DNA of 63,989 nucleotides, the filler included, from Porpidia crustulata (Eukaryota): assembly GCA_964255105.1 (NCBI GenBank). It is 5 parts of 5 records of this genome, joined end to end, with 100 filler letters (N's around TTAATTAATTAA, not from the genome) between each part and the next. Parts side by side here need not be neighbours in the genome. Positions count along the whole stretch, not along the records: positions 1 to 12,777 come from CAXUWE010000485.1; positions 12,878 to 25,653 come from CAXUWE010000486.1; positions 25,754 to 38,526 come from CAXUWE010000487.1; positions 38,627 to 51,392 come from CAXUWE010000488.1; positions 51,493 to 63,989 come from CAXUWE010000528.1. One strand, given 5' to 3'. A program made the position numbers and the translations under genes. Shown here piece by piece: positions 748 through 59,163 of this stretch (the stretch's first letter is position 1; each line of letters begins with the position of its first letter). The notes under the pieces are model-generated. The model saw only the letters and a list, made by a program, of their open reading frames with translations. It was not told the DNA's origin and made no database searches.

Positions 748-852
748 TGCTAGTTCGGCCAAACCCGCAGCTCGGCCACCCTAGCTTAAAATCGGGCATA
801 TAACCCTAACCCTTGGTGTGGTGGCCGAACTGCGGGTTTGGCCGAACTAGCA
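748..852. mobile_element. Hairpin/MITE-like element with 33-bp terminal inverted repeats and telomeric loop (TAACCCTAACCC)
   Basis: Left arm 748-780 TGCTAGTTCGGCCAAACCCGCAGCTCGGCCACC matches the reverse complement of 820-852 at 32/33 positions. TAACCCTAACCC lies at 801-812. Confidence 0.8.
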
Positions 853-1357
853 GTTAACATGTGTGAATCATTTCCTCAGTATGTCGCTTACTATCCCTAA
901 ACCACCTCCCTTAGTCGCTACTCCTACTATTTCGAACAGGTTTCTCTGATGTTGAAGCTACGCAGATGATAGGATGATTATTTCGTTCACGGGCCGAAGT
1001 CTGTGTCTGCCTTATCCTTTTTGCGCAACTTAATTCTCACCCCTCAGCATTTGTTATTAGTCGCGATATCAAACCGCGGCTATCGCGCACTGATATAATC
1101 AAACCCTCTAGATTCCCCTTACAAGCCCCTAAGGCGCAGACATCTGGGACCTTTGCACTCATCAGTATACAATGCTCTTCTCGTGAACTTCTATTGTTCT
1201 CTACGCAATCTCGGCGTTGAGTTTCACATTTACGGGGAGTATTGAGTTTATTTTCTGTCCCTGTAGCTCCTTGATGAGGAGACAAGAGGGATATGCGGGC
1301 TACTCAGACTTCCTCGGAGTTATTCTCTCTCCAAAGGATATTCGATAGTCTCTCGCA

Positions 1358-3712
1358 ATGACAATGATCAATGATAGTTTGGCCTTCGTCCGTGACGAAG
1401 GCCAATCCTTCCGTGATATACACCCTTCATCAACAGATATGCGGCGACAAATGATAGATATTGCAACACATTATGGGTTTTTTCGCTCGCGGTCTCAAGA
1501 CTGGGTGAGTAGAATGCGTTTTTTGGTAAGTGCATTACAATAGAGTAGGCGAGCAAATCTGAGAGTACATGAAAATATCAAGCTCGTCCCACTACTTACA
1601 GTTCTATTAGCAATTATACGAGTCAATTACAGAAGAGAAACAAGAAGAAGCTGGCTCCTTGGAGCCTCCCTTGTCATCATTTATTAGTCCTGCTTCTGGT
1701 AATGACCAGATCATCATGAAATTGGCGGGCAGGTCGGTATTGGCAGATCCAGGAGCGTACGTTGCGGTATTATATTGCTGGAATCGCCAACAAGATCAGT
1801 GGCTCGTCACTCTTGATGATAAGAAGCTTCCACCAATTAAGATACTCAAAGAGGGCACCAGCACCAGCACAAGGCTAAGCATGATGCCGCCTGATGTCGT
1901 CCATCGAGCGATTGCCTACGCAAAGGAGCGAAAAATCAACGTCATCTGGATCGACCAGGAATGCATCAATCAGGATAACCAGAACGATAAAGAAGACGGT
2001 ATCCAGGCTATGGATATCATTTACCAAGGTTCTGATCATCCTATTGCCGTCTTGGAGTTGTGCTTTGAGACTCAGGCCGAGCTTGACGCTCTAGCCTCTG
2101 TCGTGGACACCGATCTCTTTGAATTTGATCCTGCCCAGATAGAAGCCTTGGCAGACATCCTTGGTGCTCTTTCCGATGACCAGTGGTTCGAGCGCGCTTG
2201 GACGTTGCAAGAGTCCACATCGGCGGGTGCGAGTATGGTCCTTCTCATCAGCGTTCCCGAAAACTTCACTAAGCCACCCTGTTTCGGTTCTCTTCCGTGG
2301 GATTTCGAGATGAATATCCAGGATCTTCAAGATGCTATGGTTAACGCGCGAAACTTGATTGAACAAGGTCTGGCCACGGGCGTCTGGGCTGATGATACTG
2401 ACAGCGCCATCTATGCTTCCAATTGTGCCGACGTACTTTGGAGTCGCATTCCCACCATGACCCCAGACCGGGGTCTATCGAGACGACAAGTCTCTTACCG
2501 TCAGGAATGTAATGCTGCCCAGGCTGTGAATTTTCTTGACGATCGTTACAATTCCGTCTTCCCGGACAGACTAGCCATCCTGGCGAACATATGCAATTAT
2601 GAATATCGAATTAATACCAAGATTTTAGTCCAGCCGGGCTATTCGTTTTCCACTTGCGTGCTTACACTAGCTATATTAAATGGTGATATGTCATTATTGG
2701 CGGGTTATGAAGACGCGGACGAAGCTGCCGGAAAGCGAGACAGGAAATCCAACTGGGTCATGGACACCGCCAGAGATGGTCGATCCATTAAGGATCTTCT
2801 TTATGGAAACGATGATGATGATTTGCCGTCAAACAGCTACGGGTTCTCATGGGGCCCCAAGCCTTCTGGAAGCCTAAGCAGTATCACCTATCTTCAGGAA
2901 GGGAAATCCAGGTTTCGACTGCAGCCAGCAAGTCTCTCAGCACACGGATGGAGAATTTGCGGTATATTGTGGCATATGGGATGTGCCGTCAGCGTGCCGA
3001 GAACGCAAATACAATTTGCAACGAGGTGGGAGAAAGAACTACAGCTTCAGGTAGCTGACGAACATGTTTTGGCAGGTTATGACAGACAGCGGCTTCTCCT
3101 GCAGGATTTTACCTGGACTTTGCTCTGTGAGCTCGTCGATCAGAAGTATGTCTCCTTGGCAAAGACATTATGGCACTTCCTCCAGCCACTCGAAAAAGCT
3201 GAGCTATCGGAATTCGATTCAATCACAGCACCTCGGCCTTACTCCTTCGACCATGTCTTGGTGTAGCACCGCCAAGGATAGAAGACTCTAGAACAAAACC
3301 ATCCTCATCAAAGCACGATGAGCAAGAGGTTAGAAATCGCTTACGGGGCGTTCACCTCTCGTTTGATCCCAAAAGTAAAGTACTGGATAGACCTGGCTTG
3401 GAAAGACGGCTCATCGAACAAGTGTGCCGAAGCGGGATATTATCCTGCGGCGTTCCTCTAAATTGCTACAACGACTCCGAACCGCGTGTCTGGTTCGAGT
3501 CCTCAAAAGAGGAGGATCTGCTCTTCACTCCACTTACGACAATTGGCGACGGGATAATCTATTCCAGATACTTCACTCGAGCCATTTCGTGGAAAGTTCG
3601 AAAAGCTGAAGAGTTCGGTGGTGATGATTGCGAAGTCTTGCATTGTTTGGGTCGGCGGCGTGGATTTTGGCGCTTGGAGGGTCTAGAGCCAATAGATTGT
3701 ATTCTGGAATAA
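1358..3712 (+). pseudogene. HET-domain (heterokaryon incompatibility-type) protein with an apparent frameshift near 3258
   Basis: HET motifs YVAVLYCW, IWIDQECINQ, AMDIIY and WFERAWTLQE. Exon 1 (1358-1504) joins in phase through intron GTGAGT..TAG (1505-1610). The frame stops at 3266, but another frame is open from about 3250 to 3712. Confidence 0.7.
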
Positions 3713-4484
3713 AATCCGACTGAATGTAGTGAAGGGATTCATCGTTAGGAAGCACCCAAGGTAGACAAATCCTTGTCCATGAGTCACATCGAAGTGTAAA
3801 TGAATAATTGACTTGGATTGAATCAGAAGGTTTATGATCCACCATGCGAAAGCCGAGGTCGGCTCCCTTTCAATTGGGACATAAAACGAGTACCTTGGAT
3901 ACTAGTAAGCCTAGGGGCTCAATGCACGTCAAGGTGTCCTCAAAGTCTCTGCTGATACTACGTAGTAGTACGTTCTGCTCAGTGAAAAGCATCTTTAAAA
4001 TGACATATTGAGTCTTCGGGCACAAGTAGAAATCAAGAATCTCTCACAGGAAATTTGTTGCCGTATCGTACTGCATACATTTTTGGACTCCACTGCTTGC
4101 AGGAACTTCATTGGGGATTCGTCTGATCAGTATAGTTTTTGAGCGATGAACGCTATTGGCTACAGGATTGCTGTCTGTTCAATGTAGCGATAACACCACT
4201 TCACGTTGCCCCTATTACCCAAGACTGTTCCGTCCGAAATTGCACAGTGTACGATTTAGTATAGCTTTTATAGTTTTATCGAGTCTTGGGTAATCCAAAC
4301 TTGACGTGAAAAAGTTCACAAAATCATCGATACCATGTCTTGCACCCTTAATAGCTCAGCAACTCCCCTTAAAATCAAGATGTGGAGAAGATGTTGCCAT
4401 GGCCGTTGAAAACCATAGCGGTAGCATCATCGAGCTTAGATACGCAAAATGCATATTGCAAGCTTACAAAGATGACGACCTACT

Positions 4485-5786
4485 TCAAATGCTCAAACAA
4501 ACCTTCCCCTCCTTTGCAAGCAAAGAATGCCAGTAATCAAGGGCACGCACCAGACCAGTACTGTGTGATAGTGCCCCGCAGATGACGAGAACGTGCATAA
4601 TCTGGTGGCTCGCCCCATAAAGGTCAAACGCCTTTGGATACCATCGCTCCGGAATACGTGCCGCATAGACGGCTGTTCCAGTGGCATTCAATACACCGAG
4701 ACCGAGGAAATAGCTTATGGACATCCTTTTATTTTGCAGTTCCCAGCCGTTGAGAATGACACCATGGATAGCGGGGACGAATATGGATAGGCCGAGACAG
4801 CCGTACATAGCTGAGCGCAGCGGTCGATATGGAGGTCGCCTGAAACTTGGTCTCATCGTGAAGAAGGCGCACGCGATTGCTGTGGCTGAAGCCTGTTTGC
4901 AAATATGGTCTATTAAACAATGTTGTCAGACAAACAGGATTCCGTAAGAACGTACCATTGTCCAGTAGAAATACTGAAGTTGCTTGTCGCAATAGAAACC
5001 ATAGTAATCGCTGGGAATAGCAGATGCCCAGATAACGATCACGATACCTAAATGGTCAAGTTGGTTTCCTAGGGTGTGAACTTCTTTGCTGTGGTTCAGA
5101 AATATGTGAAAGCTATGGATGATTCGGTGACGTGAGTTGGTCATGCGCAGTGTACGTGGACGACAGAACTAACAGTGTGGAGAGTGAGAAGCATATCACA
5201 ACGCCCGAGCAAAAAATGCCAGTCATGAGGACATCCATCGACGTAGCGACAGCGTACCGAGGAGCAATTTGAAAACAGGAATACAGTAGAAACAGCCAGA
5301 AGAGGACCGCGCCAAGAAGATGGGACCAGATATTAACTGTCTAGCATGAGAAGATTATATCTACGATGACAAATTGTGGTTACCTGTTTCGTTGTGCAGT
5401 CCAAAAATGCTCAGAAACGATCTTCGATAAGAGAACGAAGCTTTTCTAGACATATCGTGAGTAACGCTCTGGAGATATATATAGGAAACGTGTCGGCGCA
5501 CCGATATCCTGTCAATACATATTCATTGTCCCTTTGGTGATTTTAGCCTCGACCTAATTAAGACAGTTCTTTAAAGACTCTCTCGTACCTCTGCCATTCA
5601 GCTGGAACGTAGTAGGAAAATTAGCATAGGTGACAGGTCGGCTTAAGTCAGCCACTACGCACGTAAATCCTTCCACTCGATCAGTTTGTTCTCTCTTAAC
5701 CTCTTTTAAAGTCAAGACTTAGTATCCCATTCTTGTTCTGCCTTAGGCTTCTTGTGATTTTTATTTGAACATACCGTGATAGGCAT
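4485..5786 (-). CDS. PAQR/haemolysin-III family membrane protein (IZH/adiponectin-receptor-like), multi-exon
   Basis: Spliced translation gives LPEWQRDNEYVLTGYR..HNETVNIWSHL, LDHLGI, RIPERWYPKAFD and GASHQIMH, all PAQR hallmarks. Confidence 0.85.
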
Positions 5787-6407
5787 TTCTGCTCCTTCCT
5801 ACAACAGTCAACTTTGTAAGGCTGAGCCGTCCAAGAAAAGTGGTGGAATTTTATTTTATGCGACGTCCGAAAGACGAATTCTAATCGAAGACCTACTCAT
5901 ATAGTCTCAGGATACTGACCAAGAAACAAAACAAGTAATTTGTTCCTCTCATGTTTAGTCATGCGCATTTATCATGTGTGATGTTCGAGCCTGTTCTAGG
6001 CCTCTTAGCCGCCGAACGTGCGTCTATGTTTCGCATCGCACCTACCAAACACTTCACTCTCCTAAAAATACCTCTTCGATAAATGCGGCATACTTTGTTG
6101 TCTCACACTCAAGCAAAGCCAATGACAATGGCGTATTGCATCCCAGGCGCCGAACCTCTTCGTGGCTTGAGTTCTCTAAGGGTCCCTAAGGGAGCAGGAG
6201 CAGCTCTGAAACATGTAGCCTCCCGGCACAGTCGATTCTTATCATGATCGTGAGAAAACCATCGGATTTCTTAAGAGATCTCGCTGCCACTCATATAGAT
6301 TTGCAGATGTGTGTGATTGCTAATTGGGTTTTCTAGCTTATGCTTCTTCCGATAAATCCCGTGTCGATATATCATTTCTGTCTATATACCCCTTGCTACT
6401 TTTACTT

Positions 6408-8289
6408 ATGTCTCTGATTGTATCAATTGCTTTTTTATTATTTCTACTACAATTATCCTTTGCAGTGCCCGTAACGTCTCCCTCGAACAAGTCTACCACA
6501 AAAATCCCTCCTAACACCCCATCTTCGAACTACGTCGGTTTTATTGGTGATCCAAATGGTCGAGGGACTGTTTCACTCTTGGTTAGCTGTCTATTAACAC
6601 TGTTGCTTTGTGTGTGGTCAGCATTGCATCTCAATGTTCCTCATCAGCGCAGCAGTAACTTTGATACATGTCTGCGTAACTTCAGGTGGGTTCTCGCTGG
6701 TATCTACGCGCCTGAGCTTGTAGTTTTTACTGCGTGGCGACAATGGGCTTCCGCGAAGCTACTTGGGAATCTGATCCAGAAGCTCTACACCGTGAATAAG
6801 GAACGGGGTCGCGACACCTTCGATCCTGCGACTGGGGTCATAAAAGCAAAGATATCTTTTAAGAAAAATTACAAATGGACTAGAGTACACGATTTCTTTG
6901 CCTGTACTGGTGGATTTGCTTTCGAAATGGAAGGTGGCACGTGCAGTGGAAGCGAAGAAAAGGATCTCGAATTTCTACCCTCAAGCTGTCCGAATCGTCT
7001 TACTTTGACAACACGAGGGATTGCTCTGCTTGCAGAATGTGGACATCTGCCTGATATTCCCGAGGGCGTGATACTCGACAAGAGTAAGGCTAATGATCTT
7101 GCGAAAGCGATGGTATTGATCCAGGCTTCGTGGATGTTATTACAGACTATAGGCCGTCTGATTACGAAGCTTCCGGTCACGCTTCTTGAAGTCAACACGG
7201 TTGCACATGTGTGAGTAATCCATTCCGGGCTAGCGTGGATATCAAGGTCATATGCTAAAGGTACTATCTAGTGGCTGCGTATTCTTGATGTATGTCTTAT
7301 GGTGGAACAAACCCCTACTTCCCAACGAGCCTATCATTCTACGAGGTGATTGGGTGCAGCCGTTGTGTGCGTATATGTACATGAGCAGTGAGATGAGCGG
7401 AACTTTAGAGAAACGAAAATCGCAAACATTGGTTAAGACTATTTTCGCTTCTATGAATTGGTTCTCCAGAATCCCGGAATTGGAACATATTTGCCTGTCT
7501 ACTGGTCTATCTGGCATGGCTGGTGATTCCACCGAGGGGCAAACAGAGCGTCAGACCGCGAGGATAGAATTAGCTCCAGAGTCATGTCTGGCCGAGCTTC
7601 ACTCCCGCAGAGTTGAGAAGGCAGCCAATACGGCATTCTTCGAGCGCCGTCCGCGAGTCGGCGGAGCCAAATCCCACCTAATCACGCAATCAGCCATCAT
7701 ACAGCGACGATGGGAGCTCATACATACGGCGATCGATCTCTACCCCACGATTCGCGAACAGTACGCTTTATACACACACCAACGCCCGGACCAGAATCAC
7801 TGCCAAAGCAAACGCCAGTGCATCCACTTTAATCCCGCCCCGCTGATCGTCGAGAACGTTCAAAATTGGCCCTCCGACGACCTCCTGCGTAGCGTCAGCG
7901 GGCTCCTGGTCGGAGTGGTCCTGTGGACCTTGAATTTTCTCTATGGCGGCATACACGCCGCCGTGTGGAACAATCACTTCCCTACCGCCGCCGAGAAATG
8001 GCTCTGGCGCACATCGGCAGCGTACATTGGGTTTTGCGGTAGCCTCTGGATCGTGCTCAACTACTTGACCATTCTGTACCCGCCACTGAACGAGTTCTGG
8101 GAGCGCTGGATGGACGGCATTTCGTCCTGGTTCTACTTCGCCGTGCTAGGCTCGTTGGTGTGCATCTGTGGGCTGTCGTTCATATTTGCGCGCGGGTTCA
8201 TTGTCACGGAGGCGTTCATCAGTATCAGGAGCTTGGAGGCGGCGGCGTATGATACCCCGGATTGGACGCAGATTTTTCCGCATTTCTGA
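6408..8289 (+). CDS. Conserved fungal multi-pass membrane protein of unknown function; intron about 7211-7271
   Basis: ORFs 6324-7214 and 7252-8289 are joined by a GTGAGT..TAG intron. Recurrent fungal family motifs: GRGT..SC..TL..CVWSALHLN, APE, DKSKA..LAK, LPVTLLE..T.AH, H..AW...FPT..E..LWR. Confidence 0.75.
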
Positions 8290-8376
8290 TCGATCTATCC
8301 TGAGGGGCCTGAAGGGGGTTACACTTGATAGCGTCACGTCTTGCAAAAGCGCATGAGGGAGCCGATGGCTAGCGCT

Positions 8377-8471
8377 ACTCGTTCCCACCCCCCAACGGTC
8401 CGCTACAGGTAGGGTTAGGGTTATATCGACTAGTTTTAATTGGGGCGGAGCGCTGGGGGGTGAAAACGAGT
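8377..8471. mobile_element. Telomere-loop hairpin element, family A
   Basis: Arms ACTCGTTCCCACCCCCCAACGGTCCGC and GCGGAGCGCTGGGGGGTGAAAACGAGT. Loop TAGGGTTAGGGTTATATCGACTAGTTTTAA. Homologous to the copies at 19565, 29364 and 59024. Confidence 0.8.
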
Positions 8472-8530
8472 GAGGAGGGGCCCCACCCCCCCACTGCGCC
8501 ATCAAAAAGCGGAATACTAAGTCGTTAAAC

Positions 8531-8625
8531 CTACTCAGGCTAGTTTTTCATCCTCGGACACAACTAGTGGGTTTAGGGCGAAATCATCGCTTCTGTGTCC
8601 GAAGATTAAAAACTAGCCTGAGCAG
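8531..8625. mobile_element. Hairpin/MITE-like element, family B
   Basis: 32-bp arms 8531-8562 and 8594-8625 match at 29/32 positions. The loop has GGGTTTAGGG. A second copy lies at 10022-10115. Confidence 0.8.
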
Positions 8626-8634
8626 CCATGGGGT

Positions 8635-8690
8635 TATCCCTTAAGCTGGTGATGGAGCAGCCACCAAGATGTTCGGCCACCTTACCTATA
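8635..8690. repeat. Dispersed repeat, family C (solo arm)
   Basis: TATCCCTTAAGCTGGTGATGGAGCAGCCACCAAGATGTTCGGCCACCTTACCTATA aligns without gaps to 58709-58764 on another contig, and more loosely to 58962-59016. Confidence 0.75.
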
Positions 8691-9047
8691 AAGCTAGAAT
8701 ATAGGTAGGTTCACTCCCCCCACACCACCCCATAACGTACAGAGAACGAACAAGGACTTAGAGCCTGATTGAATTCGGAATGCCTGATTCCTTCAACAAA
8801 ATCGCACTGCATACCTTGCGACATCATATCATCCACGGAACCTCATGGGATCCATACATATCTGCCTTGCCTCGCACACAATAAGCTATGTACGACCGAG
8901 AAACCCTTTGGGACCGAGTTCCCGGAGGACAACTTTGAGGGCGCCCAGCTTCCAAATTACGAGCTCCTTGCGCTGCCTTCCACCGTTGGCAGACCGTGCA
9001 CAGATCGACCTTTCCTGGATGGCTTCGTCGTTAGACCAGCACTGTTT

Positions 9048-9431
9048 TTATCTCGTCGAACCAAGCAAAAGCTTACGTTTGAACACATGTCCCGTGATTT
9101 GGATATGTTTTAATTGTAACACAGCAGCGACGATACCGAAGAAAATGGCAATCAGAGTATCGATGCTAGGGATCCAGGTGTTGGTGCTTGGTAGAGGACA
9201 AGGAGATGCTGGAACGTGGGTCTCATTGGATGACGACGGTAAAGCGAGTCCGGATGTTGCATTAACTTGTATTGGCGTTGAGAAATTTGTTGAGGAGTCG
9301 ACTGTTCGTTTGGTATAGTTGGCACTGATTGTGCTGGAGGGATCCGAGACAGCGCCGGACAGGCAATTTTGAATGCAGAGACATGCTGCCGATGATAGGA
9401 CAAGTGAAAGGCTGAATAGAAAATTCATCAT
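9048..9431 (-). CDS. Small orphan protein: signal-peptide-like N-terminus, Ser/Thr-rich middle, C-terminal hydrophobic helix
   Basis: 127-aa ATG-started ORF. MMNFLFSLSLVLSSAACLC resembles a signal peptide and IDTLIAIFFGIVAAVLQL resembles a transmembrane helix. No family recognised. Confidence 0.5.
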   Translation of the reverse strand: MMNFLFSLSLVLSSAACLCIQNCLSGAVSDPSSTISANYTKRTVDSSTNFSTPIQVNATSGLALPSSSNETHVPASPCPLPSTNTWIPSIDTLIAIFFGIVAAVLQLKHIQITGHVFKRKLLLGSTR

Positions 9432-10021
9432 GGATTCGCATCAGTTTTAAGATTGCAGCTTCCGGTGCCGGGTGGATGAACGTAGGCTAAGAAGAGTGGA
9501 TTGTACGTCTGCTCAGTCGTAGGAATCAGAAAATTAAAGAGTAGGAAGCGTGTTTATATGGACTACAAATGTAAGAATTTCCTATACGATGGCCAGTGGC
9601 ACAATGGCCATGTAGGGATCATTGGCCCAAGGCCACTAATGGCGTTGAAGATTATGCACACCTTATTCGTAGTTCGCAAGGAAATTCCGAATTTGCACGG
9701 GAAAGCCAAAATGAAATCTTTTCTTGCATGATAAATGTTATCGTAATAGGGTTGCGCACGACATACATGAGGCTCAACCAAGGTACGAAGAAGAACCGAA
9801 ATAACCTTATTCGACCAATGATGGCAAAACATCACCGTAAGGCTCGAGGAATGGCCTATGATGCGAGAATATTTTACACTCTATCAGGCTGAAACGCGCA
9901 CTTACATCCTAGCAGCCTGAAACACGACCGAAACTGCCTGCAGATAAGAAGCAAAGGTAACTTTAGGCGGGCGCCTTCTGCTCCAATCAGACAAGATTCC
10001 GCATGAAGGAATGGCTAGAAA

Positions 10022-10115
10022 TACTCAGGCTGGTTTTTAATCTTCGGACACAGAAGCGAGAATACCGGACTAAAATCAACCTTTTGTGTCCGAACACTAA
10101 AAACTAGCCTGGGTA
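10022..10115. mobile_element. Hairpin/MITE-like element, family B (inverted relative to the 8531 copy)
   Basis: Arms TACTCAGGCTGGTTTTTAATCTTCGGACACAGAAG and CTTTTGTGTCCGAACACTAAAAACTAGCCTGGGTA. CAGAAGCGA is the reverse complement of TCGCTTCTG in the 8531 copy. Confidence 0.8.
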
Positions 10116-10437
10116 GGCGCGGGAACATGGTGCTCCAACAGAGCCACAAGCAGCAGTCCCAGATTTCCAGCAGCCCTCGAGACGAAGCTCAATCGCTCAA
10201 CTTCACAGCCAAGAGAGGCAAGGTTGGAAATTCTTCAGACACCATTAAATACAGCGGTGCGCCTTGCGTGTCGACGTTGTGGCTGTACTTTCATGACACA
10301 TTGTTGAAACATGATCTGTTCAAATTCTGCCCCTGAATGGCCAGTGGCCACACTGTGCAGGTCAGCATGTCAGACGTGAACGACATATATCGCCGTTCGT
10401 GTCCCTACACTTCCATTCTATTGTTCCATGAACATTC

Positions 10438-12402
10438 ATGGACTGCTTAGGGATGAATACTAATACAGCAGACGCGAAAGACCCGAGGCTTCCGTTTCGG
10501 CGCCGAAAGAGCCGCTCCCTAGTGGATGAACCAGCCACAGCAGAAGCCACAGCCCCAGCCAGAGCTCAAGCCTCTCAGTCTGATACACAAACTACTCGTA
10601 CCTCTTTTGCTGAGCTCTCCACCATCATCAAAAGTCAGTTGGCTTTTCTGTCAATCCAAGGCCGCACCCATGAGGAACTTCAGGCATACCTCGATCTTAC
10701 GGATCAAGAATTCACTGCTATCGGAGCACTCAGACGCTTCGTTTGCTCGTCAGGTAGTCATGTACTTCCCTCACCGACCACTGCCTACCCTTTCATACAA
10801 ATAGCCCCTCGAAAAGACCACGATGTGTCTCGAAGCAGCGTCCAATCAATTGCCGGATCCTCCATTGTCTCTGCGTCTCCCAGCAATACTAGCGGAATTG
10901 CTTCCCGAAGCTCTGTGGCCAGATCCTCCTGGTCGACCGTTGACTCGAACCCTCCAATTAAAAAGCGCATTAGCGGCAATACCCCAAGCAGCCTGCAAAA
11001 GCAACACATCCCTCTTCCGAACCACCCACCTAATTCAGAGACCGTTCACCAAGTGAGTCCACCGCAATCTAGCTACTGGTGTACTGTCTGCGAACACCCC
11101 CGGCGCTTCGAGACATCTGGCGGATGGATAAAGCACGAAAAGGAGGCACATGAAAAAACCGTCTACGTTTGCATGCCAGATGGTCCTACAGTGCGCCGAG
11201 AGCATGAATCAGTCTGTGTATTATGTGGTGAGATAAATCCAGACGAAAGTCACTTGAAGAAACACAACGTTGCACCATGTCTCATGAAAGCGTCGACCGC
11301 TCGGACATATAACAGGAGATATCAACTCGAGAAACACATGGAAAGCCACGGGGTTGCCAAAGACTCCACCATCACCAAAGGATGGCGACGTGATTGCTAC
11401 AAGCAAGCTTGGGCTTGCGGCTTTTGTGTCGCCTACTTCAGTAGACCAACGGAACGTTTCTACCACATTGCCACGCAGCACTACGATCGTGGAGACGATT
11501 TGAGCAAGTGGGATGCATCAAAGGTCATCCTTGGCTTGCTGCAACAGCCCAAAGTCCGTGACGCTTGGAATATTCGAATGAAGCTCCAATTTCCTCATGG
11601 CAAGCAAGACTTACGATGGGACAGGACTCCTACTAGGAGTTTAATCACTATGTTAGAGCTGGGATTGCGGGGCAACGAAGACGGAGAAGGCTTGGCTACG
11701 GCCGCTTTCATTCAATCGGACCACTATCAAGGCCGCATTGAAACCATTCCTCTCCCTAACCAAGCTCCCCTAACCAGTAAAGTCGCTCATAGGGAATACC
11801 AGATCAATCGAGGGCTCACGCAAGGTTTCCGGCGGCTGAGTAGCGACCTCTTCGATGACCGTGAACATCCGACCTCGGCGCCAGGATATGGCTGGGTGGA
11901 TCCTGATCGGCCACAGCCGTTGAGTAGTCAATCGGGCTATAAAGTCGCGCTGGGACCGGACCTCGGGGTTGAGGTCTCGTCAGGGCTACCTGTGCTTCGT
12001 GAGCAGTCGATCAGCTCAATGATATCGCCTACCTTGAAAAATTTCGAAGCTCATCCAGTAGCAACGCATTCCAGCCAGCAAGTAGAGCACTTACCATGGC
12101 CAGGACTCGTAACCGATCAAACGGACCTTATATCTCTATACGATGTCGACGACCCTAATTTCTCTTGGTCCAGCTTTGTGACCAGTACTACAGGCCTCAT
12201 GAATACTGATCCGCCATGGGTTCCTCCCGAACGTCACCCGAATCTAAACGTCGGTAATAATTTTCCCACGCCACAAACATTCGACTTGGTGAGCAAATTC
12301 TCCCCACAATATGGCACCGCTCATGATCGGCTCGGATCTCCAATGGACCTGGATCTAGATTCGGATGAACTGACTCGATTACTTCTTGGTCCTAGCGAGT
12401 AG
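10438..12402 (+). CDS. Fungal C2H2-type zinc-finger protein (putative transcription factor)
   Basis: 654-aa ORF with YWCTVC..F....GW.KHEKEAH, CVLC..H...H, YNRRYQLEKHMESH and AWACGFC..HIATQH, plus low-complexity flanks. Confidence 0.75.
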   Translation: MDCLGMNTNTADAKDPRLPFRRRKSRSLVDEPATAEATAPARAQASQSDTQTTRTSFAELSTIIKSQLAFLSIQGRTHEELQAYLDLTDQEFTAIGALRRFVCSSGSHVLPSPTTAYPFIQIAPRKDHDVSRSSVQSIAGSSIVSASPSNTSGIASRSSVARSSWSTVDSNPPIKKRISGNTPSSLQKQHIPLPNHPPNSETVHQVSPPQSSYWCTVCEHPRRFETSGGWIKHEKEAHEKTVYVCMPDGPTVRREHESVCVLCGEINPDESHLKKHNVAPCLMKASTARTYNRRYQLEKHMESHGVAKDSTITKGWRRDCYKQAWACGFCVAYFSRPTERFYHIATQHYDRGDDLSKWDASKVILGLLQQPKVRDAWNIRMKLQFPHGKQDLRWDRTPTRSLITMLELGLRGNEDGEGLATAAFIQSDHYQGRIETIPLPNQAPLTSKVAHREYQINRGLTQGFRRLSSDLFDDREHPTSAPGYGWVDPDRPQPLSSQSGYKVALGPDLGVEVSSGLPVLREQSISSMISPTLKNFEAHPVATHSSQQVEHLPWPGLVTDQTDLISLYDVDDPNFSWSSFVTSTTGLMNTDPPWVPPERHPNLNVGNNFPTPQTFDLVSKFSPQYGTAHDRLGSPMDLDLDSDELTRLLLGPSE

Positions 12403-12777
12403 GGAGTTCTATGGAGAAAGGAACAAAATAAGTTCTTGAGACTGAGTATAATGTAATTGAGTAGCGGGAGTAAGAACTATAATCTTGGATAGATAGCTAT
12501 ACTCTTGGATTCATGCCCACTAGGTAGAGTTGCTTCTACCGTAGGGGAGGGTGTGCACACTGGCGCTAGTTCTGGTGAGACACATTTCATGGCGCGCTAT
12601 GATAATATCCAGAATTACCTTGCGCAAGTAAGAACGCAGCGCCACCGAAAGAACCCGTCGCTGAGCGCGGGCACGTCGAATGTTTTTTTTTATTTTTTTG
12701 GATAGTAAAGCCATAGACTTTCCCACAAGGCCTGAAGAACTTGAATCTCCCTTCGATGATATTTAGGACAGTTACGA

Positions 12778-12877
12778 NNNNNNNNNNNNNNNNNNNNNNN
12801 NNNNNNNNNNNNNNNNNNNNNTTAATTAATTAANNNNNNNNNNNNNNNNNNNNNNNNNNNNNNNNNNNNNNNNNNNN
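12778..12877. other. Artificial contig spacer N44-TTAATTAATTAA-N44
   Basis: 100-bp gap containing a six-frame stop linker, identical to three others in the window. Confidence 0.98.
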
Positions 12878-17942: not shown

Positions 17943-19431
17943 TCAGTCTACAGGCCTAGCTTTCGGTGGAGGAAGTGTCCCCGATGTCAAATTTCCCTTC
18001 CTCTTCCGAATATTGAAAACCCTCTTCAATCTCTTAAGTTTTGCCCATCTTTCTTTCTCCATGTCTTCCTTGCTCCTCGACGACTCGGGTATTGCATCTG
18101 AACTTGCGATGCTGGCAACCTCGCTTGCTGCGCCGTCCGTTTGAGGCCGTGGCGGATTATCATTGCCTCTCATGGAGTCTTGGGTATTCACTAGCAGGCG
18201 AAGTAAAGTTTCCCAGCCAGCTAGACCCTTTGTCAACGAAACCGGCCGCTGAGGGGCCGCACTTCCGTTCTGTGAGATGCTATTGATCCATGGACAATAG
18301 TCACGGTGTTCACCGATCACATCGAGCCGAGCCATAGCAGCAGGCTCAGGAGGATAGTCATCGGAAGAAGTCGAGGGACTCTTGAACAACCAAAGACCTA
18401 GTCGCCGAAAACAAGTCGTACATGTCGCCAGGCCAACGACGTGGTTTGCTTCTGCTTGCCAGCCAAAGATAGCCAGCGTGAGCGCTTCCATATTAAGAGG
18501 CTGGGGTTCTGCATAAGGTGGCGGGGCATCGGGTGATGGGGTTGCCGGACTTGGTTGCAGTATTCGAAGTATAGCTCGAGAGAACTTGTTCGTCTCGTAT
18601 GAAGTTGGTGTACAGAGATTGGTAGGCAACTCCGATGCCATACTAGAAAGGGATTCATAGCGTAGGCGTAGGCTATCCAGAGCCGTATTTTGGTGGGCAA
18701 GTGGTAGGCGATAGATTGTGTCTGAACAAATGAGGTCAGCAAGAAGGACTTCAGGGCTCAAACATCTCATGAATACCATCGCAACCTCTTCTGCGCCACA
18801 GACAGCCACCAAAGTGTTCAGTAATAATCATCTCTGCGTATTTCTCCACCAATTGCTCCCGTGCATTATCACGCCAGTCCTCGCTCGGTCCTTCCGGAGA
18901 TGCTTCACCGTCCTGAATGCGGATTTGTTCGGAGTCAAGATCTTCCTCATACTCCATTGGATCTGTCCCCAATTTAATCACCACTTCCCTCCCGCAGCCA
19001 CCCACACATCCGACCCTCTCCTTACCAACGCATGTCCAGCCTCGCTTCGCCCATTGCACTTCGTTGATTATCTCGGGCTTGCCCGTCCACCTGTCGACAT
19101 GGCGAAAAGTCGCCAGCCGGTCTAGGAACTGACCTCGATCCCATGGAGCAAAATTGGGTGCTCTGCGCTCTTTGTTCGTGCTTGAAGGACTCATCTGTCT
19201 CAACGAAGGCCGATTCCCTGTGTTTCGCGCCGCAGCGGCATCTTTAATAGAAGATGAGGTAGGTCGCGCTAAACGAGGCTTTTTGACAGCCGGCTCGTTC
19301 GCGGTGGGAAGTGTTGTTGTAGACGCATTGTTATGGTTATTTTGAGGCGCTAGGGAAGGACTAGAAGCATTGGAAATGGAATCGAGTATCTTATTGAACT
19401 TGCGTTTCGTGGTCGTCAGTGTAAAGACCAT
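17943..19431 (-). CDS. C3HC zinc-finger protein, Rsm1/NIPA-like; one intron about 18724-18777
   Basis: PWDRGQFLDRLATF, WAKRGWTC, CVGGC, H..GCLWRRRGCD, LAIFGW, C..CFRRLGLW and EHRDYCPW. Confidence 0.88.
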
Positions 19432-19564: not shown

Positions 19565-19669
19565 TACTCGTTCCCACCCCCAACTGTCCGCACAGTCCGC
19601 CACACATAGGGTTAGGGTTATATCGACCAGTCTTGATGGGGGCGGACCGTTGAGGAGTGGGAACGAGCA
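19565..19669. mobile_element. Telomere-loop hairpin element, family A, in the divergent Rsm1-like/MET22 intergenic region
   Basis: Arms TACTCGTTCCCACCCCCAACTGTCCGC and GCGGACCGTTGAGGAGTGGGAACGAGCA. Loop TAGGGTTAGGGTTATATCGACCAGTCTTGA. Confidence 0.8.
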
Positions 19670-19780
19670 TTGATCGCATATCATTTCGCATTTCGCCATA
19701 ATCACCCCGAATATCGTCGGAATTTGACAGATTTAGCTCTCAAGTCCTAGACTAACGACCACGAATCGAACAACTCCTTG

Positions 19781-20998
19781 ATGAGACTTCCTGAACTCAA
19801 GTTCGGTTTTCTATTCGCTAAGAAGCGTTCTCTCCGGATCTCTCTTGTCGTCCTGGCACTATCTTCTATCCCGATTTTTGCTTCGCGTCTGAATTTACTT
19901 TCTCGTCATTTCAATCATTCGTCTTTCAGACTTTTCTCCACAACATCTAAGATGTCGTACCAGAAAGAACTTCACGTTGCCGAAATGGCTGTTCAACGTA
20001 CCACCCTCCTCACCCAGCGTGTCTTCCACGAAAAAGCCAAAGGCACCCTCTCGAAAGATGATAAATCTCCCGTCACTATCGGCGATTTTGGAGCCCAAGC
20101 ACTTATAATTCAAGCCATACGTTCCAACTTCCCTAAAGACGAGATTGTCGGTGAGGAAGAAGCTAGCTCGCTGCGGGAAAACCAGCCACTTACTGAGCAG
20201 ATCTGGGATCTTGTAAAAGGTGCAAAGCTTGAAGACGGCACGGCCGAGCGCGAGCTAGGAGGGCCGGTGGAAAGTATGGAGCAGATGCTGCAAGCGATTG
20301 ACGCCGGGAACAGCGCGGGTGGGCCGAAGGGGAGGATATGGGCACTGGATCCCATCGACGGAACGAAGGGATTCTTGCGCGGGGGACAGTATGCCGTATG
20401 CCTAGCTCTGATCGAAGACGGCGATGTCAAAGTCGGAGTGCTGGGGTGCCCAAACCTACCTGTCGATAACTCCGCGCCTCTATCCGCAGACGTCGGAGGC
20501 ACCGGACGGGGAGTATTATTCAGTGCCATCCTCGGATCAGGCGCAGCAAGCAGACCGCTCGGGCGTGGCGCCCTCGAGCCAAGCCAACCGATCCACATGA
20601 AGGAGGTCACAGACATCGCTCAAGCCACATTCTGCGAAAGCGTCGAAGCCGGGCATTCCTCCCACGGCGATCAAGCTGCCATTGCCAAGAAACTCGGCAT
20701 CACGAGCGAGAGTGTGCGGATGGACTCGCAGGCAAAGTACGGCTCGATCGCACGGGGCGCAGGAGATTTGTACTTGAGGTTACCGGTGAGTGCGACTTAT
20801 CAGGAGAAGATCTGGGATCATGCGGCGGGGGACTTGATTGTTAGGGAGGCTGGAGGTGAGGTCACGGATTCTGAGGGTAAAAGGTTGGATTTTGGAAAGG
20901 GGAGGACGCTGAGGGATAATAAGGGGGTGGTGGCGGCGCCCAAAGGTGTACATGCCCAGGTACTGGAAGTGGTGAAGAGTGTATTAAGCTCCAAGTAG
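19781..20998 (+). CDS. MET22: 3'(2'),5'-bisphosphate nucleotidase (conserved core starts at ATG 19952)
   Basis: KDDKSPVTIGDFGAQA, GEE, WALDPIDGTKGFLRGGQYAVCLAL, DSQAKY and EKIWDHAAG. Confidence 0.95.
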   Translation: MRLPELKFGFLFAKKRSLRISLVVLALSSIPIFASRLNLLSRHFNHSSFRLFSTTSKMSYQKELHVAEMAVQRTTLLTQRVFHEKAKGTLSKDDKSPVTIGDFGAQALIIQAIRSNFPKDEIVGEEEASSLRENQPLTEQIWDLVKGAKLEDGTAERELGGPVESMEQMLQAIDAGNSAGGPKGRIWALDPIDGTKGFLRGGQYAVCLALIEDGDVKVGVLGCPNLPVDNSAPLSADVGGTGRGVLFSAILGSGAASRPLGRGALEPSQPIHMKEVTDIAQATFCESVEAGHSSHGDQAAIAKKLGITSESVRMDSQAKYGSIARGAGDLYLRLPVSATYQEKIWDHAAGDLIVREAGGEVTDSEGKRLDFGKGRTLRDNKGVVAAPKGVHAQVLEVVKSVLSSK

Positions 20999-25653: not shown

Positions 25654-25753
25654 NNNNNNNNNNNNNNNNNNNNNNNNNNNNNNNNNNNNNNNNNNNNTTA
25701 ATTAATTAANNNNNNNNNNNNNNNNNNNNNNNNNNNNNNNNNNNNNNNNNNNN
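25654..25753. other. Artificial contig spacer
   Basis: N44-TTAATTAATTAA-N44. Confidence 0.98.
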
Positions 25754-29363: not shown

Positions 29364-29460
29364 TACTTAATCTCACCCCTCAACGGACCAAAAAATCTAG
29401 GGTTAGGGTTGTATCTATTGATTTTGTTTAGGATGGTCCGTTGAGGGGTGAGAACGAGTA
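29364..29460. mobile_element. Telomere-loop hairpin element, family A
   Basis: 27-bp arms 29364-29390 and 29434-29460 match at 24/27 positions (inner 20 perfect). Loop TAGGGTTAGGGTTGTATCTATTGATTTTG. About 150 bp upstream of the F-box gene ATG. Confidence 0.8.
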
Positions 29461-31109
29461 TTTAAATTATGACGTTCTGTGGTTCTGTAGCTTTACCGTT
29501 GGCTAATTGCCTGACATGATTCTCGCTGAAGCAATAGATAAACGCTGACCCCTAGAAATTTGCTCCTTCTGGTCCACTTTTGCAGCGGTCTTTAGCAGTC
29601 GTACTCTCTGCTCTTCGTGGACAAAAGACCACTATGGCTGCAATGCTTGAGTTCCGAATTTGGTACCCGGAAGGTCTTTCGACTCGAGGATTCAATCCAC
29701 ACCGTCCCCCACTTCGTTTCACAGGTAGCGAGTTTCGCTATATGTAGTCAATTAGATGCACCGATCTTCTGTCGTTGTGAGAGGATCGATTTTTCAGCGG
29801 GAAGACTAAAGGCTTTGCTTCAGAAAATATCGATTTAGAGATAAAATCGATTGTCTGTTCATCCTTTGAACAGCGCTTTGCCTGAAGGCTTGATACTATT
29901 TGTAAACTTTGAGGTGACGTTAGCAGCAGTAGTTCTGTGAGTCCCACGGATACTCATCATGAGGTGAAGCGACAATCCACGGGTTGAGGTCGATATACAG
30001 GATGATCGAATCTGGATGGAGGGTGGTACTGCGACGTCAAGCGAATCTGATATACTCTACATCATTTATGAAAATACAGCTTAACGAGCGGAAACGAACT
30101 GCTTTAAGGCGCAACATCTATGGTGCTGTAAATTTTGAAAGTAGAAGCAACCGAAGAAGACCGGCTACTTTATTTCTCTCAGCTCCATGTGTAGCACTGA
30201 GCTGTATGAGATGGACCCGGAGCGACATGAGACGACATTTAACCCACCAGCTTCGAATGACTTCTTGCGAGGATGCTGTATGCTGCATATTGTCCTGGTT
30301 TACAATTAACCAAAAGGAAAGTCAGTGAGCAAGGCGAATAATGAGTACCTCAAGCTTTCTCTTTCCGTGACAGGAGTGTCACTAGTGGTCCAATGTTCCC
30401 CAACGCCATGTTTTTCTGGATTGAGATCTCCTAGCGATGCAGCCCTTCGCTTTTGCGCTCTCGACTGTTTACATGGCGGCTGCCGCACGCTGACGGAAGT
30501 CTCTATGGCAGGTAAGTGGAGTAGCTAATGAGTAATCGAGTCGTCAGACATTTGGCGACAGGGGTAAGATTTCAGATGCACAAAAGGTTCATTCATGTGG
30601 TGAACGAAGACTTCGTGAGATAATGTAAACGATCGAGTCTTGTTATCAACCAAGCCAGATAACGACATTCTCCATGAACGAGTCCCAGACGGAAGAAAGA
30701 TGATGCGCTACTCATGTACCTGGTGCCTCTGGCCATACCTTATTACAGTAAGCCTCGTTCTGATGAGGTCTCTAATCAATACTCGTTTGCTACTGCGCAC
30801 TTCAAGCCCTATTTACTTCAATCTCAATGCCATCTAAGTACATTATCAACGCGCACCTCATCGCTATCAAATTTGAGAGGAGACCCACCAAGAAAACCGT
30901 GTAAAGCGCCATTGAAGGAATCCCTCCAGCCGGTTTCCCATGCTCATCCCCGCCCCTTATCCATAAAATGTGCGCCACGAGGAAACTGGAGCGGAAACTT
31001 CGGAAGACAAGACACCGGGAAAAACTCCGCTGGATCGTTCCCTTAGCTAAGTTTGAAGTATGTAATCCGCGATTCACTCAATAAAGAAAAGATATTGGCG
31101 CGGGCTAGG

Positions 31110-38526: not shown

Positions 38527-38626
38527 NNNNNNNNNNNNNNNNNNNNNNNNNNNNNNNNNNNNNNNNNNNNTTAATTAATTAANNNNNNNNNNNNNNNNNN
38601 NNNNNNNNNNNNNNNNNNNNNNNNNN
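38527..38626. other. Artificial contig spacer
   Basis: N44-TTAATTAATTAA-N44. Confidence 0.98.
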
Positions 38627-51392: not shown

Positions 51393-51492
51393 NNNNNNNN
51401 NNNNNNNNNNNNNNNNNNNNNNNNNNNNNNNNNNNNTTAATTAATTAANNNNNNNNNNNNNNNNNNNNNNNNNNNNNNNNNNNNNNNNNNNN
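51393..51492. other. Artificial contig spacer
   Basis: N44-TTAATTAATTAA-N44. Confidence 0.98.
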
Positions 51493-56713: not shown

Positions 56714-57200
56714 ATTTCTCTGATTCTGGATGGAGGAATATAAGATAGCTGAGTTGGAATAGCCAGATCCACTGCATCATGGCTACAAGGCAAGCTGTGC
56801 CTCGTACGACCTGAACTAATTGCCGAAAAGATGGTATCTTGAGGACTGTCGTCTCCGACAGTATGCAGCTTCTGTTATCATCAATGGTTGACTAATCGAT
56901 ATGGGTTGCATTGACATGCGCGCCTTTTGCACTCTCCACCGCGATTGAATGATAATGTGAAAAGGGCTGTATTGATTGGGAAATGTTTACAAGAACTCGT
57001 AAATGCGGCACTGATCCCTCTAATATCTACCGCATGAAGAGGGTCTGAGTTGGATTCTTATTCGAGGTATCCGCGCGGGGTTTACATGTATGCAGAGTGC
57101 ACGAACCCGCCAAACACATTTCGTGCTGGTAGCGGTTGATACAAGGAGTGCTGAGAGATAAAAGACCAGATTACCTGCCTGAGGCACTCGTCTATACATA

Positions 57201-58130: not shown

Positions 58131-58708
58131 CAGTTAAGGTCCACTTATTTCAATAGCCTCTGCAGAGCGTCATCTAAACCATGGAAGGACATGAGCAACA
58201 TCCTGGATATTCATTGCACGTCAAAGATATCAGAGCGTCCAAATAATTCGGCTGCCACGAAAACTTGCCAGCGCATCTAATTTTCGAACATCAATGCAAC
58301 GCTGCGTTGCAACAGATACTTAGTCTTCTTGATGCCGTCGTCTCTGGGAAATGATGCTCGGAATAAACTGATCCTCATGCTTAGCCATACGGACAGATCT
58401 TGAGCCCATCTTCATGCCCGCTGTCTCAATACAACACTGTCAGGTATGCCATCAACAGCACAATACTCATCATTACCAAGTTTTTACTAACCCGGATCCG
58501 CCGTGAGTAGGTAGGGTGGAAGAATTGGCTTTACAGAATGATCTGGATGAGGCGAAGTACTACTTACGTATCTTCAAGAGCCACGTTTCTCCCTTTCTTA
58601 TCAAGCTAAGGTGCTTGATAAGGTAGTCGTAATTAAGGCACAAAGGTTGCCTAGATGCACGTCCACGCCTGTGGGAACTGAGCTTTGAAGAAGTGGCTGA
58701 GAGTGCGG

Positions 58709-58764
58709 TATCCCTTCAGCTAGTGATGAAGCAGCTACCAGGATGTTCGGCCGCCATTCCTATA
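58709..58764. repeat. Dispersed repeat, family C (solo arm)
   Basis: TATCCCTTCAGCTAGTGATGAAGCAGCTACCAGGATGTTCGGCCGCCATTCCTATA, collinear with 8635-8690. Confidence 0.75.
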
Positions 58765-58961
58765 TATTGGTTACTGAGCTCTGTTCGTTCTTAGAGTACC
58801 ATTATATGTATCGAGTATGTCTAGATAGGGATGGTGAGATGGTGGCCGTCCACCATAACCGTTACTTTTGATTGATGATCTGAGCCTCCTTTTGCAAACC
58901 TCAAGATCTTTGAGCAGTAATCGTGGAATATTGAGCATGGAAAGACTCACATACAACCACC

Positions 58962-59163
58962 TAGCCCTTGAGCTGGCAGTCAGTGTGCCACCAGGATTAT
59001 CGGACACTATACCTATCTAGATATGCTCGTTCTCACCTTCAACGGAAGTAGGTAGGCGGTAGGCTCAAACTAGAGAGAATAACCCTAACCCTTGACCTTC
59101 TGCTCCGTTGAGGGGTAAATACGAGTAATCCTGATGGCATACAAACTGCCAGCTTAGGGGATA
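58962..59163. mobile_element. Family C inverted-repeat element containing a nested family A hairpin
   Basis: Left arm TAGCCCTTGAGCTGGCAGTCAGTGTGCCACCAGGATTA matches the reverse complement of 59126-59163, TATCCCCTAAGCTGGCAGTTTGTATGCCATCAGGATTA. Confidence 0.72.
59024..59127. mobile_element. Telomere-loop hairpin element, family A (reverse orientation, diverged)
   Basis: Arms TGCTCGTTCTCACCTTCAACGGA and TCCGTTGAGGGGTAAATACGAGTA. TAACCCTAACCCT at 59080-59092. Confidence 0.75.

Follow-up and report, generated by a model that had tools for sequence, protein, structure and literature searches.

A family of short TA-flanked inverted-repeat elements with an internal pair of telomere units in Porpidia crustulata

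Intergenic DNA of the filamentous ascomycete Porpidia crustulata contains dispersed inverted-repeat elements of about 100 bp that share a pair of telomere units, AGGGTTAGGGTT, in their loops. Here we ask what kind of element this is, and whether the shared 12-mer has a job or is merely inherited. The window, that is, the whole 64-kb stretch of DNA that was analysed, consists of five pieces of about 12.8 kb with runs of N between them, and the pieces are unlinked.

Anatomy and multi-copy status of the elements

Five inverted-repeat elements of 97-105 bp each, including flanking dinucleotides, were located in the 64-kb window (Table 1), at the places where a first-pass annotation of this DNA had described five hairpins of about 100 bp on four separate contigs. 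Two copies lie on piece 1 and one each on pieces 2, 3 and 5. The terminal inverted repeats are about 27-33 bp long; within each copy, aligned arms of about 24-30 nt differ from one another at one to six positions, and pairwise identity among the five copies is 56-76%. None of the copies has coding capacity and all five lie between ORFs; the 19565 copy, for example, is positioned between divergent ORFs at 18751-19431 (minus strand, NuBaID/zf-C3HC) and 19778-20998 (plus strand, inositol monophosphatase family).

Table 1. Coordinates of inverted-repeat elements and related features in the window
Feature	Position	Strand	Details
Family B copy (748 copy)	751..849	minus	TA on both sides; 12-mer 802-813, minus strand
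Family A copy (8377 copy)	8376..8472	plus	TA; arms 8377-8403 and 8445-8471; 12-mer 8411-8422; tail; TG
Family A copy (19565 copy)	19565..19669	plus	8-nt insertion in left arm; 12-mer 19608-19619
Family A copy (29364 copy)	29364..29460	plus	TA on both sides; arms 29364-29390 and 29434-29460; 12-mer 29399-29410
Family A copy (59024 copy)	59024..59127	minus	most decayed arms; 12-mer 59081-59092, minus strand
Larger palindrome	58943..59182		arms 58943-58999 and 59126-59182, 57 nt, 72% complementary; encloses the 59024 copy
Family C element	8532..8624		
Family C element	10022..10117		

An inverted-repeat search returned arms of 27 nt for the 8377 and 29364 copies (89% complementary in the latter) and of 45 nt for the 748 copy with its flanks. 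The arms of the 19565 and 59024 copies fell below the thresholds of this search, and both are visibly imperfect in the alignment. When the copies were folded as single-stranded DNA, all except the 59024 copy, which two of 200 shuffles equalled, did better than every one of their own 200 shuffles; z-scores were -11.4 for the 748 copy and -5.0, -3.9, -7.7 and -2.9 for the others in coordinate order. The larger palindrome around the 59024 copy probably represents an inverted-repeat element of greater age, into which this copy inserted.

The 748 copy had been described as keeping the common loop on a different stem, which is correct but calls for a qualification. Its arms, mismatched with each other at one of 30 aligned positions, are strongly diverged from those of family A, but its layout of 36 + 12 + 51 nt has the same geometry, and its inner stem and arms retain about 50% identity with the other four copies.

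The flanking dinucleotide is TA in seven of ten cases, and a single transition separates each of the remaining three (TG, CA and CA) from TA. These three exceptions share one side of the element, and the dinucleotide could thus be repeat sequence and not a target duplication. The pattern is consistent with a partly mutated TA duplication or with a dinucleotide that belongs to the repeat.

Contig sets of four sequencing runs were compared with window positions 1-12777. One run contains the stretch at a share of 0.98 and is possibly its source, and another at 0.08, with no RNA run listed among those that contain it; we refer to the likely source as X1, to a relative as X2 and to the remaining sets as X3 and X4. 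In X1, 160 contigs align to 1-12777, 108 of these only in part. Summed contig depth, which is not equivalent to copy number, was 129 in the bin of the 8377 copy and 43.8 in that of the 748 copy, compared with about 11.6 elsewhere. In nine X1 contigs the match starts precisely with the T of the TA (8376), and the sequence ahead of it is unrelated. Ten others start matching at 8410, just ahead of the 12-mer, and the consensus preceding them is a family-A-like arm in a different register. The element is a dispersed multi-copy repeat, matched by many other contig pieces of X1. No empty orthologous site was seen in X2: the single contig nearing the 8377 site aligns over 4770-8299, stops short of 8376 and continues for 1161 bases, and there is no cover over the 748 site. 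X3 contigs gave no alignment and X4 contigs short pieces only.

Stowaway-like MITEs are short, non-coding and TA-flanked, with terminal inverted repeats. Based on these features, the five elements very probably constitute a MITE family of this filamentous ascomycete, and their structure suggests that they can be filed as TA-target, Tc1/mariner-type, Stowaway-like MITEs. Mobility would be of the cut-and-paste type, driven in trans by a transposase of the Tc1/mariner superfamily whose gene lies at another genomic location; among 60 ORFs of the window that were scanned (17 + 43), none encoded a transposase, and the window contained no autonomous partner. The earlier description of a dispersed, non-autonomous repeat is upheld by the TA flanks, the lack of coding capacity, the intergenic positions and the matching X1 contig pieces. 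Neighbouring genes are ordinary and include HET, a PDR-type ABC transporter, ATG11, FTA2 and CENP-H. The genome is compact, so that an intergenic position is uninformative, and we therefore claim no association with promoters.

A second hairpin family (family C, about 95 bp) has the same TACTC...GAG(C/T)A ends and is also at raised summed depth in X1. One of its two copies in the window contains a degenerate telomere-like motif, GGGTTTAGGGCG, and the other contains none, indicating that elements of such shape can spread without an intact dimer.

Occurrence and conservation of the telomere-unit 12-mer

Each of the five elements contains an exact match to AGGGTTAGGGTT, and these are the only exact matches in the 64-kb window, where 0.16 would be expected by chance. 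There is one further match with a single mismatch, and none of 100 shuffles reached six matches. This one-mismatch site (AAGGTTAGGGTT, position 36459) lacks arms and was rejected as an element copy. The 64-kb window has no TTAGGG dimer other than those in the elements, and single TTAGGG/CCCTAA units show no enrichment (25 observed, about 31 expected by a simple arithmetic estimate). A loop-like fragment at 29529-29561 lacks both an intact dimer and recognisable arms.

In four copies the 12-mer starts 35-36 nt from one end of the element; in the 19565 copy, which has the 8-nt insertion, this spacing is 43 nt. The distance to the other end is 50-57 nt in all five copies, including family B. Every copy has exactly two telomere units, without length variation. 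In an alignment of the five copies, 30 of 114 columns show no change, and the longest such run, of 12 columns, is the 12-mer itself. A 12-column invariant run occurred in 2 of 200,000 column shuffles of the five copies. The loop tails quoted in the first-pass annotation were correct, and apart from the 12-mer there is no long block without change. Using mismatches between the arms of each copy as a clock, we expected 4.3 changes in the 12-mer over the five copies and observed none (P=0.014), a test that is limited to five copies and assumes arms perfectly matched at insertion. The statement that the telomeric motif is kept while the rest drifts is thus borne out, with conservation exceeding the prediction from drift. 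Given that the 12-mer has survived unchanged at a constant position in elements that have otherwise diverged, this short motif probably has a job, and we consider it probable, judging from sequence comparison, that the 12-mer is under constraint.

It could be argued that the dimer is a neutral passenger of the same MITE, derived from a founder, and that its invariance in five copies is an accident of sampling. There are only five readable copies, and they were noticed through the motif; in addition, family C bears the motif in decayed form, and the fragment at 29529-29561 may be a decayed relic. However, a search of the 64-kb window with a profile of the five copies, in which the 12-mer was not obligatory, recovered these five and no others, as did a profile of the loop only. 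Given that the motif-free search added no copies, the motif did not bias the discovery of copies within the 64 kb. The rarity of a 12-column run among shuffles, in copies that are 56-76% identical elsewhere, also argues against a passenger, as do the ten additional X1 contigs whose alignments start exactly at the motif. We regard a neutral passenger as improbable.

Alternatively, the 12-mer might serve the element of the same MITE family itself, as a transposition enhancer or as a secondary site for the transposase or a cofactor; its conservation would then be restricted to active lineages, with free decay after insertion. This would account for its constant spacing from the end in both subfamilies, for its presence in A and B despite arms that differ at about half of their positions, as a requirement for propagation predicts, and for the fact that every TTAGGG dimer of the window is element-borne. 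Known Tc1/mariner transposase sites are located inside the inverted repeats, which counts against such a role. Moreover, the arm clock, a weak test, suggests that the 12-mer has also resisted change after insertion, and an intact dimer appears not to be needed for the spread of family C. We consider a role restricted to the element unlikely, but less so than a neutral passenger.

Pairing of the arms and the hairpin

The two arms of the elements co-vary. Of 26 arm pairs, 16 have changed on both sides, and 86% of the 130 pair cells are paired, a value reached in none of 500 shuffles. Such changes, together with the long stems, would be expected if the elements encoded a structured non-coding RNA or a microRNA-like precursor of small RNAs, with the stem selected for pairing. 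Further in favour of an RNA, the 748 copy matches Rfam MIR6440 (RF04070) over the whole model with 45 bits, and it resembles this MITE-derived microRNA precursor in being a perfect hairpin of about 100 nt.

By contrast, co-varying arms are also expected of inverted-repeat transposons, and a conserved loop motif would not be required in a Dicer substrate. Among the arm mismatches on the motif strand, 6 are G:T and 10 are A:C, so there is no excess of G:U and no preference for RNA wobble on either strand. Rfam models at gathering thresholds gave no match in the whole window, and at E values of up to 1 the match of the 748 copy to MIR6440 was the sole one. Its score compares with a gathering score of 95, and the opposite strand scores 38 bits; scoring on both strands means that the palindrome is what matches. 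Nearly all of the similarity is in the long stem, and Rfam returned no match for any of the other four copies. When positions 600-1000 were scanned by themselves, weaker matches to mir-2518 and MIR946 were added. All three identities were rejected as generic palindrome matches, and an RNA gene or precursor is very improbable. The hairpin potential follows from the terminal inverted repeats. Of the overall interpretation given in the first-pass annotation, a dispersed, non-autonomous repeat with a conserved 12-mer stands, and the hairpin need not be a functional part of its own, considering the absence of a wobble bias and the sub-threshold Rfam scores on both strands.

That a palindrome coincides with a two-unit telomere seed is the one observation that could point to a fragile site, at which breakage of a hairpin or cruciform exposes the dimer to telomerase. 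Nevertheless, each of the five copies has an internal position in gene-dense DNA with both flanks intact, and the number of units is exactly two in every copy with no variation in length. Addition of (TTAGGG)n at the loop, which had been put forward as a sign of such seeding, was found in none of the X1-X4 contigs or joints examined. Telomere seeding through breakage and telomerase recognition is extremely unlikely.

A candidate Myb site on a probable mobile element

The reading that we prefer is a MITE with an internal 12-mer that would act as a constrained cis-element. This 12-mer has stayed unchanged as the arms and the remaining loop sequence drifted, and families A and B have it in common despite the change of about half of the arm positions in B. 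The 12-mer is a candidate duplex-DNA site for a TTAGGG-binding Myb protein of the Tay1/Tbf1/Tbf2 type, which the element may bring into gene-proximal intergenic DNA. Two tandem TTAGGG units, the sequence requirement of a double Myb according to the half-site consensus, are present in all five copies. We hold the account as a whole, a MITE with a constrained 12-mer as the site of a TTAGGG binder, with moderate confidence. Taken separately, the proposal that a telomere-type Myb protein reads this putative site is a tentative one, to which we give somewhat less than even credence. It is more doubtful still that these elements form a MITE superfamily selected for the internal telomere-unit pair and not for the inverted repeats, and act as mobile carriers of Tay1/Tbf1-type sites. 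Such a superfamily would scatter sites for telomere or general regulatory factors, with nucleosome-free or insulator properties, through promoters, and its arms would be free to drift if kept complementary, for example by template-switch correction of quasi-palindromes.

MITEs are common in fungal genomes and are usually of value for annotation only. The Guest element of Neurospora crassa is one of the fungal Stowaway-like, Tc1/mariner-type MITEs, with a comparable size and a TA target. The elements reported here resemble fungal Stowaway-like MITEs in their length of about 100 bp, inverted repeats, TA flanks, lack of coding capacity, gene-proximal or intergenic positions, multiple copies and 56-76% identity. 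TA-flanked MITE families of the Tc1/mariner type, 81-83 bp long, are present in Epichloe, among them EFT-25m and EFT-29m of E. festucae with a TA duplication and inverted repeats of 24-25 bp; pairwise identity is 60-85% in most of the Epichloe families, and insertions are biased towards the 5' regions of genes (PMC3227409). In Mycosphaerella graminicola, 8 of 13 MITE families have TA duplications (PMC4522978).

TA-target MITEs are a common kind of element in fungi, and the conserved internal pair of telomere units is the unusual part. By their descriptions, the inverted repeats of these fungal MITE families are conserved and their interiors vary, whereas the internal 12-mer is the most conserved part here and is common to subfamilies with diverged arms. 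For example, the interior of EFT-29m is dissimilar to EFT-25, EFT-27mA and EFT-27mB have only their repeats in common (PMC3227409), and superfamilies of M. graminicola combine the same repeats with different interiors (PMC4522978). The literature covered, in which subscription journals are thinly represented and Repbase and Dfam lie outside the scope, contained neither printed arm sequences nor a description of a telomere dimer inside a fungal MITE. Neither Rfam nor this literature provided a described family, in agreement, provisionally, with the earlier view that no named family can be assigned. A metagenome scan with a loop-centred pattern returned 19 loci, none with element arms, all of which were telomere junctions or chance matches. 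A pattern of arm plus motif gave no matches in prokaryote genomes or in viral contigs, where fungal DNA is not expected.

With two tandem TTAGGG units in duplex, non-telomeric and gene-proximal DNA, the elements are also comparable to short interstitial telomeric sequences and to sites of the Tbf1/Tay1/Teb1 type in promoters and subtelomeres. In contrast to these, the predicted site rides a probably mobile element at a fixed position, and the window has none outside the elements. At least three Myb/homeobox proteins, Tbf1, Tbf2 and Tay1, are associated with TTAGGG repeats in Neurospora crassa (PMC4650311), which thus has several direct binders of the repeat. Repeat elements bearing one to a few telomere units are otherwise represented by the endonuclease-deficient Penelope-like elements of M. 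graminicola, which are described as 3.4-3.5-kb reverse-transcriptase elements at chromosome ends with telomere repeats at the 3' terminus (PMC4522978). Unlike these, the elements reported here are about 100 bp long with symmetrical inverted repeats, and their motif is internal (35-43 and 50-57 nt from the ends). A telomere-associated Penelope-like or terminal-repeat retroelement was rejected, given that the motif is internal and the flanks are ordinary genes and not subtelomeric.

In conclusion, if the motif is a passenger, these elements are one more degenerate fungal MITE family, of interest for annotation only. If the motif outlasts the inverted repeats, they would exemplify, in nature, how a transposon spreads a defined protein-binding site through gene-proximal DNA. 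This opens the questions of whether TTAGGG-binding Myb proteins of filamentous ascomycetes have non-telomeric targets across the genome, and of whether mobile elements may wire genes to these proteins.

Structure of the elements and of related hairpins

All five inverted-repeat elements described in the first-pass annotation are present at the places it had reported (see the table for their extents). The motif sequence AGGGTTAGGGTT, comprising two telomere units, has exactly five occurrences in the window, one per element, against a chance expectation of 0.16. Scans of the window with a whole-element profile and with a loop-only profile each recovered only these five copies. A site at 36459 that differs from AGGGTTAGGGTT by one mismatch lacks arms and was rejected as an element copy.

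Positions of the elements, the family C hairpins and the piece joins along the window
Feature	Position	Strand	Remarks
748 copy with flanking dinucleotides	751-849	minus	piece 1
8377 copy with flanking dinucleotides	8376-8472		piece 1
19565 copy with flanking dinucleotides	19565-19669		piece 2
29364 copy with flanking dinucleotides	29364-29460		piece 3
59024 copy with flanking dinucleotides	59024-59127	minus	piece 5
Family C hairpins, about 95 bp	8532-8624 and 10022-10117	opposite orientations	
Piece joins	12778-12877, 25654-25753, 38527-38626, 51393-51492		N runs in pairs, 12 bases apart

Read with the motif forward, all five copies share one plan. Between two flanking dinucleotides lie, in this order, an arm (about 27-33 nt), a spacer of a few bases, the 12-mer, a tail of about 20 nt rich in T, and the complement of the first arm. 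In four copies the 12-mer begins 35-36 nt from the left end; in the 19565 copy, which carries an 8-nt insertion, this distance is 43 nt. From the motif end to the right end of the element it is 50-57 nt. On the left, every copy is flanked by TA; on the right, two copies have TA, two have CA and the fifth has TG. When folded as single-stranded DNA, four copies beat all 200 of their own shuffles (z -3.9 to -11.4), and the decayed 59024 copy folds at z -2.9, matched by 2 of 200 shuffles.

Four copies (8377, 19565, 29364 and 59024; family A) have common arms starting TACTCGTTC(C/T)CACCCC. The arms of the 748 copy (family B) start TAGTTCGGCCAAACCCGCAG; they differ from each other at 1 of 30 aligned positions, and when they are aligned with the consensus of family A only about half of the positions agree. 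The earlier description of this copy as having a different stem is thus correct for its arms, but the inner stem, TTCGGCCACCACAC, and the loop can be recognised as those of family A. The flanks of the 748 copy (736-864) form a partial palindrome that extends 15 nt past each TA (45-nt arms, 87%); if the element and a single TA were excised, the palindrome TGCTAGCA would remain.

A second hairpin family, family C, has arms starting TACTCAGGCTAGTTTTT, an inner stem, TTCGGACACA, similar to that of family A, and ends (TACTC...GAG(C/T)A) identical to family A ends. One of its two loops contains a degenerate GGGTTTAGGGCG where families A and B have the telomere dimer, and this is absent from the other loop. 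On the minus strand at 29529-29561, we observed a fragment similar to the loop of the 29364 copy nearby, with AGGGGTCAGCGTT replacing the dimer and without recognisable arms.

Dispersal and classification

Contigs of X1, a public sequencing run that contains 98% of the sequence words from window 7000-10000 and is possibly the source, were aligned to window 1-12777 at 80% likeness. A total of 160 contigs matched, 108 of them only partly, with 50 differing places, including 33 transitions. Nine contigs start matching exactly at 8376, the T of TA, and carry unrelated sequence upstream of the match. Ten others start at 8410, one base ahead of the 12-mer, and ahead of this position their consensus resembles a family A arm in another register; eight break at 8462 and run on into a family-A-like right arm ending GAGTA. 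Opposite-strand joints were present in X1 between the two family C copies. Summed contig depth was 129 in the bin of the 8377 copy, 43.8 in that of the 748 copy and about 11.6 in most bins, and it was raised in both bins holding family C hairpins (38.7 and 44.7). Because summed depth does not measure copy number, we limit our claim to at least about ten further element copies, and probably dozens.

A weak loop-like match, TTTAGGGTTATTTTGAC, lies on the minus strand at 506-563 (E 0.2-0.8) and adjoins a repeat boundary at 563, the point of divergence for five X1 contigs; in one X1 contig, 563 is joined straight to 8375. The match may be a decayed copy or belong to another repeat. In X2, a run of a relative, the alignment of a contig nearing the 8377 site ends at 8299. 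An X2 contig of very high depth (2318; neighbour 35) matches 4377-4739 with 44 differences and one gap over 363 bases, and this part of the window overlaps a minus-strand ORF (4488-4925) with a Haemolysin-III-related domain.

The window is gene-dense filamentous ascomycete DNA, with ORF domains that include HET, which we take to be a marker of this group, a PDR-type ABC transporter, ATG11, FTA2, CENP-H, INO80 Ies4 and similar ones. Since the N runs join five unlinked pieces, each about 12.8 kb long, distances across joins are meaningless. No transposase was found among the 60 window ORFs scanned. The element fits a MITE (a small non-autonomous inverted-repeat transposon) by its size, inverted termini, TA flanks, dispersal, multi-copy status, intergenic sites, transposase-free ORFs and nesting. 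The nesting concerns the 59024 copy, which is enclosed by a larger palindrome at 58943-59182 (57-nt arms, 72% complementary) that looks like an older inverted-repeat element into which this copy inserted. The TA flanks, either a duplication or part of the repeat, point to the Tc1/mariner superfamily and a Stowaway-like element.

Comparable fungal families have been published. In Epichloe festucae, some TA-flanked families measure 81-83 bp, and most MITE families of this species have a pairwise identity of 60-85% and lie preferentially in 5' regions of genes (PMC3227409). In Mycosphaerella graminicola, TA duplications accompany 8 of 13 MITE families (PMC4522978). As described in these two papers, families have inverted repeats in common and differ in their interiors, whereas the elements described here have the reverse pattern. 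Literature searches turned up neither a fungal MITE that contains a telomere dimer nor a paper giving these arm sequences, and Rfam has no family for the element. As the comparison covered the literature and Rfam, a repeat library such as Repbase or Dfam may already contain the element without a name.

Conservation of the 12-mer and of arm pairing

Pairwise identity among the five copies is only 56-76%, yet the 12-mer is unchanged in all. An alignment of the five copies has 114 columns, of which 30 do not vary, and the 12-mer is the longest invariant run; an invariant run of at least 12 arose in 2 of 200,000 shuffles of the 97 well-occupied columns. As a clock since insertion we used the arm-to-arm differences within each copy (1-6 per copy), which presumes perfect arms at insertion. 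By this clock, 4.3 changes are expected in the 12-mer over five copies versus 0 observed (P=0.014). Both tests, each with n=5 copies, support the proposal that the telomere dimer is invariant while the rest drifts.

The arms have drifted in concert. Changes on both sides affect 16 of 26 arm pairs, with pairing in 86% of the pair cells, which was not approached by any of 500 shuffles or any slid register. A structured noncoding RNA had been suggested, but such double-sided changes are not in themselves evidence for RNA. On the motif strand, mismatched arm cells comprise 6 G:T versus 10 A:C, plus 8 of transversion type, so that neither strand is favoured, and Rfam gave no match at gathering thresholds. 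Weaker Rfam matches were confined to the 748 copy and to microRNA-precursor models. The match to MIR6440 (45 bits, gathering score 95; 38 bits on the opposite strand) was rejected as a palindrome matching a palindrome on both strands. It is possible that selection by a transposase keeps the arms matched as they drift. Fold-back copying of one end is a possible origin of subfamilies with matched arms, and template-switch correction of quasi-palindromes is a possible cause of arm matching.

Possible roles of the motif

In each copy, two tandem AGGGTT units are followed by a purine, an arrangement that presumably fits a TRF-type Myb half-site. Several proteins of filamentous ascomycetes are associated with TTAGGG repeats; direct binding to the duplex repeat is shown for Neurospora crassa Tbf2 and Tay1 and inferred by homology for Tbf1 (PMC4650311). 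Based on the fit of the AGGGTT units to a Myb half-site and on these ascomycete TTAGGG binders, we favour the motif as a candidate protein-binding site on duplex DNA, which the element would carry into gene-proximal regions.

Such a putative site could serve the element itself, by keeping chromatin open or by enhancing transposition, although family C, with the same ends and a similar inner stem but without an intact dimer, argues against an absolute need of the motif for propagation. It could also have a regulatory or insulating role for the host; against this, all TTAGGG dimers in the 64 kb lie within the elements, and single TTAGGG/CCCTAA units are not enriched (25 observed versus about 31 expected by our own arithmetic). 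The motif could benefit the element, the host, or both. The proposed telomere seeding or breakage finds no support: the flanks are intact in gene-dense DNA, every copy has exactly two units, and no added telomere repeats were seen at the contig joints on window 1-12777.

In conclusion, the shape of the element is that of an ordinary TA-flanked fungal MITE, and its unusual part is an internal pair of telomere repeats, highly conserved across subfamilies whose arms have diverged. If the element is a mobile carrier of telomere-protein sites, which is plausible from its sequence and can be tested, the finding would be important.
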